DNA of 64,000 nt, from positions 198,090,001-198,154,000 of the forward strand of contig OZ024741.1 in assembly GCA_964016885.1 (NCBI GenBank). The letters are read 5' to 3'. The notes below the pieces were generated by a model that did not search any database, was not told the DNA's origin, and saw only the letters and a list, made by a program, of their open reading frames with translations. Made by a program: the position numbers and the translations under genes. Position 1 is the first letter of the stretch, and every line of letters begins with the position of its first letter. Below, piece after piece: positions 1 through 63,975 of this stretch. The stretch is from Eledone cirrhosa. Taxonomy: Eukaryota.

Positions 1-268
1 TATTGACATACCCGGAAAAAAGACAACCTCATCGGTTGAAGCTTCCTGGAAGCTTCAACCGTTAAGGTTGTCTTTTTTCCGGGTATGTCAATATTTATTT
101 ATAAAACATATCTGTATGTTATCTGATGAAAGCGCACCATAATTTGCCTTGGTTGCCCTTTTATTAATATATTGTGTATTTACTCCACTAACATGTTGAG
201 TGCTTTATATCAGTTATAAAAATGTTTAAGCTTGTTGAATCCCAACAAATTAAATATAACCTCTGCAT
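1..268. mobile_element. Fold-back insert, family C (left arm cut by window edge), HHR-deleted copy
   Basis: Inverted repeat 1-93 with apex near 46. The right arm matches 8701-9223 and runs into (TA)n at 268. CTGATGA is present at 123, but the GAAA half is deleted. Confidence 0.75.
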
Positions 269-538
269 ATATATATATATATATATATATATATATATAT
301 ATATATATTTCGTTTCTGAATTTGTTTAGCAAGATTCTTTATCTGAAATCGTGTGTTGAAACCGATATTGTTATACTTCGGGAGGGTCATGTTGCCAATA
401 AGAAACACACGCACCAGTTGCTTTCACTTCAATTTATTATATATTTATAAATTTATAAATTTACAAATCTACAAACTTATAAATTTCTGGTTGGTTGGTT
501 GGTTGGTTGGTTCCACAACCAGATAGTTGTTTATATAT

Positions 539-583
539 AGTCATAGTCCTTTCGTCACACACTCTGTGACCTCTTCAGTGACT
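539..583 (-). ncRNA. Minimal type-I hammerhead ribozyme (PLE-A)
   Basis: Reverse complement of 1823-1867. Confidence 0.75.
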
Positions 584-787
584 GGGGATTCCTTTCTTTG
601 TTTCTGTGCCTTTCCTTTCTTCTGTCCTACGCCATTTTGTTTCTGTGTGTGTGTTGTGTGCTCAGTTTGCGCATGCGCCACATCCGGGTGTCTGTGTGTG
701 TTTGTGTTCATTTATCTATTTGTTTATTTATTTACATGTTGTTGGTTGGTTGTTTGTTCTATGTGTGTGTGTGTTTTCACTTTGTCC

Positions 788-1545
788 TTAATTGTAAGTT
801 GTGATGTTGCTGTTCCACTCATATTTTCTATTTAATTTTGGTTGTAATTCTTTTATGCTTACTGCCTCTGTAATTTGCCTAAACATTGCATCTTTTCTGT
901 GTGTGGATTCTATTTTTATTTCTATGTTCTCTAATTTACCCTTGTGTTCTATCTTAGCATGTTGGTAGAGTACAGATGATTCTTTATTATCTTGAAGGTC
1001 TCGCCAGTGTTCATTTATTCGTTCCCCTATACTACGAGCTGTCTCACCTATGTACACTATATTTTTGTTTCTACATTGTCCCCTATGTACACTATATTTT
1101 TGTTTCTACATTGTCCTTCAGTACATCTTATGCTATACACTACATTTCTAGTTTTACAGTTAATATGGGGGCTTATTTTACAGGTTATACATTTCTTATC
1201 TATACATGAGGGTCTTTGGAACGGGTATGTCTTGCTAATAAGTGTTTTTACGGAGGTACCTGGTCTTTCTACTATCTTAATATTGAGTTTATGTTTATTT
1301 AGGGCCCTTCTAAATGTGTAGGCTAGTTCGCCTCTAGGGGTTGTATTGATGAACATTACACTCTGGTATTTATTGCTATCATACCATGAGTGTTTATTCT
1401 ATTGGCCTTGTTCCTAGTTCTTTCTATTCTATTCCATAATTTGCTCCTATACACGGGGGCAGGTCCCATTTATGTCATTATTTACCATTTTTTCCCATTT
1501 GGTTCTGGCTCCTCTATACACTCTGATTCTATCTCTCTGATTGTA
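788..1545 (-). pseudogene. PLE C-terminus: thumb/linker (CxxxxCxxC) and GIY-YIG endonuclease, frameshifted
   Basis: ORFs 1057..1356 and 788..1057 read CIDKKCITC..NVVYSIRC..YIGETARSIGERINEH..RQITEA..PKLN. A ~33 bp tandem duplication lies near 1048-1115. Confidence 0.9.
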
Positions 1546-1822
1546 GCCAAAGAATTACAACCAAAATTAAATAGAAAATATGAGTGGAACAGCAACATCA
1601 CAACTTACAATTAAGGACAAAATGAAAACACACACACACATAGAACCAAACAACCAACCAACAACATGTAAATAAATAAACAAATAGATAAATGAACACA
1701 AACACACACAGGACACCCGGATGTGGCGCAATGCGCAAACTGAGCACACAACACACACACAGAAACAAAATGGCGTAGGACAGAAGAAAGGAAAGGCACA
1801 GAAACAAAGAAAGGAATCCCCC

Positions 1823-1867
1823 AGTCACTGAAGAGGTCACAGAGTGTGTGACGAAAGGACTATGACT
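1823..1867 (+). ncRNA. Minimal type-I hammerhead ribozyme (PLE-A)
   Basis: AGTCA-CTGAAGA-G-GTCACA gagtg TGTGAC-GAAA-GGAC-TA^TGACT. Stem I is AGTCA/TGACT. Confidence 0.78.
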
Positions 1868-61097: not shown

Positions 61098-61136
61098 CCT
61101 TTACCGGTTTCGCAGTTCTTCTGCTTTTCAAAAGTA
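61098..61136 (-). ncRNA. Minimal hammerhead, U3-A8 variant
   Basis: Minus strand: CTT-TTGAAAA-GCAG aagaa CTGC-GAAA-CCGG-TA^AAG. Confidence 0.6.
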
Positions 61137-61902
61137 GAATTGAGATGGAGGGTTTGGGGTTTTTCTCACATCATATATATAGAGGAAATGGTATATATTT
61201 TATCTAATAATTCTAAAGACATGATTTATGATATATATATATATATATAAATATTTCATTCATTTATTTTGTTTGACCCGTTTAGCTTGCTTCGTTTTGG
61301 GGGGTTTAGGTGGTTGATAGCTTCTTAACCGCCGTCTCAGTTTGAATGGCCTTTATAACATATGTTTATTGCGCTGGTCTCTTTTGGTTCATGGAGCGCT
61401 TGCCAACACAGATCCGAAATTGCGTTTCGCTTATTTCTACCTGCCGAAATACGATTCTCGCTGAATTTATATTTATTTTTCTTTAGAACAGCTGGACTTA
61501 CAACCTAACAGTTCCTTCTAGCACTGATGGTGATTATCGCTAAATATTGATATTGATTTAGTTATTAATATTAATATTATTGGGCACCCACTGAAGATTT
61601 ATAAGAGCCCACTTGCATAAGAATCCATTGATCTTACACAAGCTTCTACATAAATTGATATAATTTCACCCACCATGTAGAAATCTGATAATGAAACGAT
61701 TCGTTTTGGAAATGAGTTATATAATATATCTCATATAAAATAATACAGCCAATTATCCACAAAATACAATATAGTTAGCAGCCCAAACGTTTAATTGGGA
61801 ATATACTCCTGTATCTCCTAATGTTTGTTGAATGAGTTAGAAATTGGTCGGAGTATCGCTAATAGCTTTCTCCGTTTATGTAATTATGTATTATGCTCTT
61901 GG

Positions 61903-62400
61903 ATTCATCAGCGTGTGTAAGGCTATACATTTCAGACAACTCTAAGAGAATTTAAAGCGACTGTCCAGCTACACGTGGGAGAGAGAAGTCACAGCGTGTT
62001 TAGGGCAGGGAACCAGTGTATTTTAAAGAGCTCAGGATTCCCTCTCCTTTGAGCACATTATTGACAGGGAGTAGCGAGAGTCTATGGCTCCGTTAATCTA
62101 TCGTGATATTTCGCTCCTTATAACAGTCTTTTCTCTCTCTCTATTTGGTTGAGCACACTCGTCTGAGTGGTTTTGGGCTGCCCTTTCTAGCAGCTCGTCC
62201 CTCAGACACCACTGGTTCCGTTCCCTAAACACGTTGTGACTTCTCTCTCCCACGTGTAGCTGGACAGTCGCTTTAAATTCTCTTAGAGTTGTCTGAAATG
62301 TATAGCCTTACACACGCTGATGAACCATTGGCTATTTATTTCTGTCAACAAATTATTGGCGAAACAGATCTCTTTGGATTTGTACGTGGGTGTTATATAG
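61903..62400. mobile_element. Fold-back insert with type-I HHR at 62309-62392 (+)
   Basis: Arms 61903-62018 and 62206-62324. Motif ACACACG-CTGATGA-ACCATTGG..TTATTGGC-GAAA-CAGATC tcttt GGATTTG-TA^CGTGGGT. Confidence 0.75.
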
Positions 62401-63399
62401 TTATAGAGGTTTGTATGTACACTTTAATTTATATTTTTAATTACCGTGTGTCTACCCTACCTTTCATAGGTTATAGATTCCATACACTGGTGGTTTTTCC
62501 CTGTTTTATTGATGGCGCACTATCTCTCTCTCTCTCTCTCTCTCTCTCTCTCTCTCTCTCTCTCTCTCTCTCTCTCTCTCTCTCTCTCTCTCTCTCTCTC
62601 TCTCTCTCTCTCTCTCTCTCTCTCTAGTGTGTTACCTTTTCAACATATTGTATTTTAAAGATCTTAGGATTCCTTCTCCTTTGAGCACATTATTGACAGG
62701 GAATAGCGAGAGTCTATGGCTCCGTTAATCTATCGTGATATATATATATATATATATATATATATATATATATATATATATATATATATATATATATATA
62801 TATATATATATATATATATATATATATATATATATATATATATACGTTATTCCCGGTTGAATCGGAGGTAACCACAGTAAGTAAGGTACTCAATACATAG
62901 CAGAGTATAAAAGTTTTAATATACATGAGATTCTACAGGACTAGAACTGTTTCATTCTTTAGAAATCATCAGGAATATATATATATATATATATATAAAA
63001 GCTTCTGAAGATACAGGATTTAGATTAATGGTAATGGCAGATTCCCCGATTCAATGCGCAGATTGTAATATACAGACACATCTTTATATATTAATAATGG
63101 AGCATGAACGGCTTTTTTACTATTTCTATTTCTCATCTCCTTCTTTTTGGAACATATGTAACACAAATAAAATGTCATAAATTTCTTTACCTTGCTTCTC
63201 TATCTGTTATTATTTATGCTCTCTGTACATTCACATTTATTCAACATGTCAGATTTCTTTATTCCTAATACTGTACGGATTAATCCTGTATCAATCGACT
63301 CTGTTCTACTTTTCATTTATTGCGGATTGTGGATCTACATTGAGCTTGAAGTTTTGTTGGGTAACTTTCTTCACCTTGATATATATACACACAATGCAA

Positions 63400-63672
63400 T
63401 GCACAATGTAAATATTAATGAAAGAGTGTTTAATCTTTCAAACATTTAATAATTAACTATAGTTTCATCCTAGCACAAGGCAGGATTCTTCGGAGTTATT
63501 ACAAAAGTTAAACACAAATAGTATTAAAGCTTTGCTTCAGGAACATTTGGAGGATACATATTATGAGAGATTAGATAAGAGCAACCATTAATATTGCCTA
63601 GTGCTAGGATGAAATGATTGTTAGTTATTAAATATTTCAAAGATTAAAGACTCTGATTATTATTTACATTGT
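63400..63672. mobile_element. Old diverged fold-back with HHR-like motif at 63448-63500 (-)
   Basis: Minus strand: AATAACT-CCGAAGA-ATCCT..AGGAT-GAAA-CTATAG-TT^AATTATT. Confidence 0.65.
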
Positions 63673-63751
63673 ATTTCGGCTCTGTATAATACTTACATCG
63701 AGCTATATTCGTACTTGTAACTGGGTAATATTTAATATTACTCACCATATA

Positions 63752-63975
63752 TAATTAGAAAGTGAACAACACAAAATATATCTACTCCATTACCAAATCC
63801 CAGAAATCCTAGACAATAATAATATACGTCTGGCTCGGTCGTGACGACCGATCCAGACGTATATTATTATTGTCTGGGATCCAGAAATCTTTGGTAATGG
63901 AGTAGTTATATTTTGTGTTGTTCACTTTCTAATTAAATAGCTCTGTTCTATACATAGAGCACTCTTTTTTCTTTT
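63752..63975. mobile_element. Fold-back insert whose terminus is shared with 34830-34900 and 40320-40390
   Basis: Apex near 63842 (ggtcgtgacgacc). The end ttctaattaaatagctctgttctatacatagagcactc matches the other two loci in reverse. Confidence 0.7.

Follow-up and report, generated by a model that had tools for sequence, protein, structure and literature searches.

The stretch analyzed here (the window) comprises 64,000 nucleotides of the Eledone cirrhosa assembly GCA_964016885.1 (contig OZ024741.1, positions 198,090,001 to 198,154,000); it is rich in (TA)n and comes from a 3.0-Gb genome. It carries numerous inserts in which two copies of one element end face opposite ways between TA runs, and the arms of these inserts are 3' ends of Penelope-like elements (PLEs). 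Self-comparison of the window with simple repeats masked recovered these inverted repeats; of 28 local ones checked, 17 are TA-anchored two-ended inserts from approximately 11 sequence families. Since the other 11 repeats are inner repeats of anchored inserts or have no TA run near an arm, the figure of about 25 inserts in a preliminary description of this DNA was generous, whereas the architecture and the number of families (at least 10) reported there were borne out. The ten inserts named there are all inverted repeats lying about where they had been placed; the insert given as 41466-42250 really spans 41328-42250, a 139-bp tail having been missed, and the others shift by a few bp at most.

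Comparison of the 17 inserts revealed two common features: (i) one arm is flush or almost flush with TA, and its partner is offset by 28-139 bp; and (ii) in all readable cases the 3' ends of both arms face outward, as previously proposed. As a measure of chance, an anchored inverted repeat is seen in 0 of 159 shuffled inter-TA segments of the window. Polarity was read from the direction of the open reading frame (ORF; families A, B, C, and E) or from a hammerhead motif (A, D, and F). Below, positions u are counted from the short 3' end of each family, S denotes this short end (u0), L denotes the tail end, and L followed by a number designates a locus.

A family D insert at 1-266 crosses the left edge of the window, with its S end about 131 bp outside and its tail end L abutting a TA run at 266 (L171, L309). 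The adjacent family A insert consists of an L-end arm at 309-1554 on the minus strand (tail 309-368, hammerhead 578-550, and the 3' part of the ORF) and an S-end arm at 1549-2031 on the plus strand (hammerhead 1828-1856) that overlap by approximately 6 bp. In the family B insert, a short L-end arm (5422-5537, minus strand; tail about 5422-5481) overlaps by 2 bp at the apex with a long S-end arm (5536-8390, plus strand) encoding a 5'-truncated ORF with reverse transcriptase (RT) and GIY-YIG domains, followed by a hammerhead at 8155-8182; the ORF has a frameshift near 6091-6098, and YVED replaces YVDD. Five shorter inserts follow, each with its tail on the left where the side is given below: a family C palindrome (8449-8641; 80-bp tail on the left, arms stopping near a putative start site), a family D palindrome (8703-9224; tail on the left, both arms stopping at an Initiator-like A at u-174, and a 64-bp filler of templated repeats), a family A stub (9266-9395; 60-bp tail on the left), a family F two-ended insert (9445-10028; tail on the left), and a family E palindrome (10065-10622; 137-bp tail on the left, both arms stopping at u-209).

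The remaining inserts are scattered over the window. Family C is represented by a further insert at 42330-44309, whose L arm (42330-43586, minus strand) and S arm (43586-44309, plus strand) are 99.4% alike, and by a short palindrome at 48280-48469 with S on the left and an 80-bp tail on the right; C-like palindromes lie at 12258-12431 (tail about 79 bp) and 32534-32714 (tail about 84 bp). Families without a linked ORF form two-ended inserts at 23143-23742 (tail about 78-86 bp on the right), 35031-35833 (older, with inner inverted repeats and offsets of 28 and 8 bp), and 41328-42250 (139-bp tail, inner palindrome at 41887-42135), and a palindrome at 36029-36238 (tail about 70 bp on the left). 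The palindrome at 49328-49551 (tail 73-80 bp) belongs to a family not firmly tied to an ORF.

Families A, B, C, and E encode RT plus a C-terminal GIY-YIG domain in one ORF, as read from motifs; Pfam searches at E<=0.01 gave no match for the two family B ORF pieces of the window. Partial tandems forming pseudo-long terminal repeats (pLTRs) were found in family B (L061, L062, L063, L073), A (L293, L307), C (L292, L306), and E (L301). Together with the optional 3' tail and 5' truncation, these are traits of endonuclease-containing (EN+) PLEs. A type I hammerhead motif is present in A and B and, in the sense direction, in D and F; an Rfam scan returned only microsatellite-driven miRNA-type matches under the gathering scores, with no hammerhead family among them. 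Families A and B have a CX4CxxC linker and DKS in place of DKG, and their motifs are of the Neptune/Nematis type. Families C and E share the Hydra-clade motifs DKT, RWR (for RWK), and CxCX5C; the CCHH motif was checked in both, and one cysteine lies inside the core in C and two widely spaced cysteines in E. Because no canonical hammerhead was found in C or E (the C pLTR has a hammerhead fold with a non-canonical core, and none was found in E), these families are classified as Hydra-like rather than as members of the Hydra clade. Family F consists of tandem non-coding units of approximately 661 bp, each with a type I hammerhead motif (L276/L277, L266, L278), which is the structure of a retrozyme. 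No ORF could be firmly tied to D or F, five window families remained without a linked ORF, and linking minor families by proximity gave no firm tie.

Several further observations concern the elements themselves. The family C pLTR (window 44180-44309) folds into a three-way, hammerhead-like junction in which stem II is long; both the TATA-like and the Initiator-like motif of family C sit within this stem, so a transcript starting there would miss half of the fold. In family E (L301:1093-5432), whose unit is about 6.7 kb, the 3' untranslated region is approximately 4 kb long and encloses several TA/CA microsatellites that move with the element. A family B ORF (L003:980-1450) contains a long asparagine-rich, repeat-like stretch upstream of RT; asparagine-rich inserts are described in rotifer Penelope ORFs, at positions other than in family B (PMC3846280). 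Another PLE with a frameshift lies at 44988-46597 of the window (minus strand; weak Pfam GIY-YIG match, E 5e-4, below the cut-off), and L133 contains a relative of it as a two-ended insert whose tail is 41 bp long. A one-armed family A copy at 51282-52687 (minus strand, hammerhead at 51434-51406) ends about 46 bp short of S, with no TA run there. ORFs of LTR-retrotransposon type (protease, RT, and integrase by eye) lie beside PLE ends in L294:4570-7847, L275, and L297.

The preliminary description held the outer ends to be variable and without fixed termini; on the contrary, they are fixed within each family. Every family has one short end S plus one to three tail ends L, at distances from S of +55/57 (A), +43/45/57 (B), +80 (C), +94 (D), +137 (E), and +75/83 (F), and the tail offset is constant within a family. 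Family B ends at u0 or at u+43/45/57, each end passing directly into TA, and most S and L sites adjoin a TA step. The tail corresponds to what comes after S in a tandem, namely the ORF start in A and B and the untranslated leader in C and E. We saw no RNA structure common to the S and L sites. Identification of S with the hammerhead cut site was rejected, the motif lying about 200 nt upstream in A and B; confinement of L arms to the upstream pLTR was likewise rejected, as L arms of 1.4-2.9 kb exist.

The two kinds of ends are combined in a regular manner. Among same-family two-ended inserts of the six families, counted over all loci with identical segments removed and with inserts broken by internal TA runs or nested elements omitted, S is paired with L in 95 of 103, S with S in 2, and L with L in 6 (p = 5e-20 against 0.5). 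The same asymmetry is visible in a family-blind even sample, for which 10-kb stretches were taken at even spacing from six large contigs (60 stretches, 600 kb). An anchored inverted repeat was present there in 52 of 343 inter-TA segments: 43 have one flush arm and an offset of 28-213 bp (a few of these may be low-complexity matches), 4 have equal ends, and 5 have offsets above 250 bp. The inserts differ from miniature inverted-repeat transposable elements (MITEs), which have equal terminal inverted repeats, in that the tail offsets one arm in 43 of 52 and the arms are PLE 3' ends; the earlier assignment to PLE insertions holds. Any target-site duplication would be masked by the (TA)n sequence around the inserts. 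Some apparent one-armed copies hide tail-only micro-arms of 13-20 bp (L039, L044, L178, L198). We consider it very probable that both ends of the target prime reverse transcription and that the use of S and L is coupled.

The relation between partner arms bears on the template. Of 31 family B pairs, 14 have an S arm that extends further toward the 5' end than its partner, 15 have an L arm that does so, and 2 are even (2 more pairs were set aside as not S+L). In 14 of the 31 pairs, the short arm carries the tail and the long arm carries the body, so neither contains the other. Since each arm holds sequence absent from its partner, neither was copied from the other, which argues that both target ends were extended on a sense template, in agreement with the earlier proposal of extension on element RNA. 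In each of the 11 B pairs with more than 500 bp of overlap, no other sequence is closer to an arm than its partner, ties allowed (rank 0.00-0.05); the mean partner rank is 0.14 across the 31 B pairs, and in short C inserts the partner is closer than the median other copy in 17 of 17. Subfamily variants common to both arms number 136, against 18 arm-specific variants seen in other copies. Judged by these comparisons, both arms of an insert come from one source haplotype. Differences between arms are scattered along them, amount to 0-2%, and have a neutral pattern; variants shared only by partners comprise 12 synonymous and 12 non-synonymous changes, and arm-specific ones 12 and 37 (14 pairs; Fisher p 0.037). 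This fits inheritance of the shared variants from an active source followed by neutral decay rather than later conversion, for which some room is left.

In the reading that we favor with moderate confidence, the inserts are copies of Penelope-like retrotransposons in (TA)n for which both DNA ends primed at staggered sites, most simply on one RNA. A possible, though rather unlikely, variant is that each end primes on an RNA of its own, both RNAs coming from the same source locus and being held by an asymmetric dimer that has one subunit at S and the other at L. This arrangement would account, without strand displacement, for the overlaps of up to 2.8 kb between partner arms and for a cap-type G on both arms (see below), it would permit the rare mixed-family pairs, and a dimer has been predicted for a related protein (PMC11167929). 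However, with many active subfamilies two RNAs should often mix sources, yet 136 variants are shared and 18 arm-specific, and an unexplained asymmetry is required in a homodimer.

The apexes give information on how synthesis stops and how the arms are joined. Of 37 family B junctions, 20 have an overlap of 1-6 nt, 1 is blunt, and 16 contain fillers of 1-72 nt that are often locally templated. In short palindromes the stops are clustered. Both arms of family E stop at u-209 to -211 in 11 of 13 inserts, arms of D pile up at or just inside u-174, and those of C stop between u-36 and u-61, all 18 short C inserts stopping at or before u-61. The limit in the three families is an A within what we take to be an Initiator-like motif, and in C a TATA-like stretch lies about 30 nt upstream of it. 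Among 53 arms that stop at this A, 21 have G as the preceding base, although the element itself carries C or T at that position (9/16 in C, 5/9 in D, and 7/28 in E; p = 2e-4 against 18% G), and the G occurs on both arms in L241 and L253. An extra G at this position is a mark of a reverse-transcribed cap. The pattern suggests that short palindromes run off a sense RNA, probably capped, at a start inside the pLTR. Poly(A)-type cleavage at the same CA in D and E (AATAAA 7-10 nt upstream) could also set the limit, although the arms retain the A. Hammerhead cleavage points were rejected as apexes for C, D, and E, the stops lying 5' of or inside the motif.

If the cap reading is right, the template is sense RNA, contrary to the published view in which palindromes arise when an antisense template primes itself and the tail is left by endonuclease resolution (PMC3846280). 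In such a scheme, one cDNA or an antisense template folds back and the endonuclease trims one end, leaving a one-sided tail. Near-identical arms would be expected from it, many short inserts are indeed near-perfect palindromes, and the S+S palindrome L284 fits. It is nevertheless quite unlikely here, given that in the 14 B pairs described above neither arm can template the other, that the apexes are heterogeneous and often contain fillers, and that sense RNA is indicated by the extra G and by the fixed A at which run-off occurs.

Independent priming of both ends on any element RNA at hand, which was the version given in the preliminary description, would explain why mixed-family pairs exist (five in the pairing count, plus L025) and why either arm can be the longer one. 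Independence would, however, give S+L in about half of the inserts at most rather than in 95 of 103, and it leaves aside the source haplotype shared by partner arms, which makes it highly improbable.

The two-ended layout was also described as the dominant integration mode. This is true of long family B copies (n=29), 18 of which have a same-family inverted arm, 2 a family A arm, and 9 no arm; it does not hold in the even sample, where families A-F are represented by 9 two-ended and 20 one-ended segments (9/29, a lower bound). Two-ended TA-flanked palindromes number 43 in the 600 kb sampled, or about 70 per Mb, and extrapolation to 3.0 Gb gives roughly 2x10^5 in the genome; the window is three to four times denser in inserts than the sample. 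As a control we used a 2.2-kb family of RTE-like long interspersed nuclear elements (LINEs), in which a self-inverted arm was found in 0 of 30 copies, although some of them end in TA; these copies are older than those of family B. The absence of such arms in this LINE family favors the earlier assignment to PLE insertions. Two non-PLE LINE fragments with Pfam RVT_1 lie in the window, at 16905-19340 (plus strand) and about 28600-31300 (minus strand), the latter being a member of the control family. Five family B head-to-head joints are present, at depth 7-23, in contigs of run X1, which may be the assembled sample; such joints therefore exist outside the contigs of this assembly, and among the X1 contigs listed none bridges the apex of the family B insert of the window.

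Inverted duplications with a TA run at the center rather than at the flanks occur at window 3965-4392 and L243:430-1070; this is a different geometry, attributable to either host fold-back or assembly error. Three equal-ended inverted repeats in TA without a PLE ORF (L087:1043-1352, L087:1913-2132, and L124:8972-9413) are possibly true MITEs. Such cases lend some basis to other sources of inverted repeats, namely cruciform repair by the host at (TA)n, conversion between arms, MITEs, and artefacts of assembly, but for the inserts considered here these sources are very improbable, because TA lies outside the arms and not at the apex, the arm ends are PLE-specific sites, the LINE control is negative, the low divergence of the arms has a neutral pattern, and the joints recur in the X1 contigs.

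The priming of both ends on one RNA can be pictured as a series of steps. First, the element protein would cut both strands in (TA)n, for which there is an in vitro precedent in the anole element PAc. One end would then prime at S, and the other would do so 43-137 nt downstream, at L; these positions are seen directly in the inserts. In the one-RNA form, with S already taken by the first primer, the tail may be the only stretch of RNA still free for the second. Synthesis from L would begin with the tail and go on to push the cDNA made from S off the RNA. Three arms that stop within 2 nt of S (L063, L302, and one contig of run X1) hint at collision of the two cDNAs. Each cDNA would stop at random or run off the RNA 5' end, likely the capped start in the pLTR, and the two ends would likely be connected by end-joining, giving the overlaps or fillers observed at the junctions. 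Failure of one primer would leave a one-armed copy with TA on both sides. Arms that exceed one unit, reaching upstream of the start, would need a tandem or circular RNA.

Several points weigh against this scheme. Sequence cannot separate one RNA from two RNAs of the same locus. The 95 S+L pairs include loci of families D and E that were fetched with queries containing the tail and reaching the apex, so that one L end was assured in them. Two inserts are true S+S (L073, L284), and L085 is a PLE with equal ends. The six L+L calls comprise three F tandems split at an internal TA run, whose real outer ends are S+L, one apparent mis-call, and two apparent composites. The six mixed-family pairs (L017 at 240-4452, L025, L208, L268, L269, and L286) can be explained only by two RNAs or by nesting; in L017 and L025, an A copy and a B copy meet head-to-head with no TA at the junction. 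Arms stopping exactly at S are too few, at three, to prove collision. As for the run-off, the start-site A was picked after inspection of the data and both palindrome arms were counted, some of the preceding G may belong to the opposite arm and E has G in only 7 of 28, and no pile-up at a start site was established for A, B, or F.

The general layout of the inserts agrees with that of known EN+ PLEs (PMC3846280, PMC8557442, PMC8969392), which have the same RT plus C-terminal GIY-YIG, partial tandems, an inverted 5'-truncated head-to-head copy, junction palindromes, a one-end tail, (TA)n targets, and TATA/Initiator-like motifs at the pLTR 5' end. The head-to-head arrangement is "the most frequently observed" one in PLEs (PMC3846280), and it is drawn with a one-sided tail in PMC8557442, where the origin of tandem and inverted PLE structures is named as open. 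The published tails are 30-40 nt long, compared with 43-137 nt here, and the passages covered give no counts of the layout. Families C and E resemble the Hydra-clade PLEs (PMC8557442) in the motifs given above and in (TA)n targets; they differ in having units of more than 3 kb and no canonical hammerhead. Family F is similar to non-LTR retrozymes (10.64898/2026.07.22.740005) in its tandem unit and type I hammerhead motif with no ORF found, and it also obeys the S+L two-ended rule.

The closest biochemical system is PAc, a Poseidon element of Anolis carolinensis, whose protein cuts and extends both strands in vitro, has two internal RT start sites that bound the tail, and is predicted to form a dimer (PMC11167929). 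The ORF of PAc starts inside the pLTR, as in families A and B. That work, as far as covered, draws no connection between the two sites and the opposite ends of a single insertion, mentions no difference between strands in where RT starts, and finds no homology to the target, whereas most sites here adjoin a TA step. LINE-1 twin priming (10.1101/2024.12.14.628481) likewise starts from both ends of the break, which share one RNA as template and yield cDNAs fused head to head. In L1 the two pieces correspond to separate portions of the RNA and the second primer lands on its 5' side at variable positions, whereas the arms described here overlap and their start sites are internal, fixed, and close together. 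The inserts are not two non-overlapping, poly(A)-primed pieces as in LINE-1 twin priming, but they may operate in a similar manner. Neither the pairing of S with L as a rule nor twin priming in PLEs was stated in the texts that our literature search returned; older reviews and some supplements, outside the scope of that search, may hold part of it. Thus, the head-to-head layout, the one-sided tail, and (TA)n targeting are already published, whereas the quantitative S+L rule appears to be new and points to a testable variant of twin priming.

This variant could be a general property of EN+ PLEs from at least two clades, a proposal that we regard as evenly balanced between right and wrong. One dimer on one capped RNA would start an RT from either end of a double-strand cut, the two start points lying 40-140 nt apart, and the RT that follows would displace the cDNA ahead of it, a process that can be called overlapping twin priming. 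The S+L rule, the shared source of the arms, and run-off at a likely capped start unite the in vitro facts into one scheme. The account of PMC11167929, as far as covered, stops at initiation, and the genome adds that the two ends of one insertion split the two sites and read one source; the scheme gives a yes/no prediction for the existing assay. A further consequence concerns annotation, as palindromes of this kind resemble MITEs but are retroelement stubs. If the proposal is true, a single reaction involving no ordinary second-strand priming would generate the tail and the inverted pLTR as well as MITE-like stubs by the hundreds of thousands.

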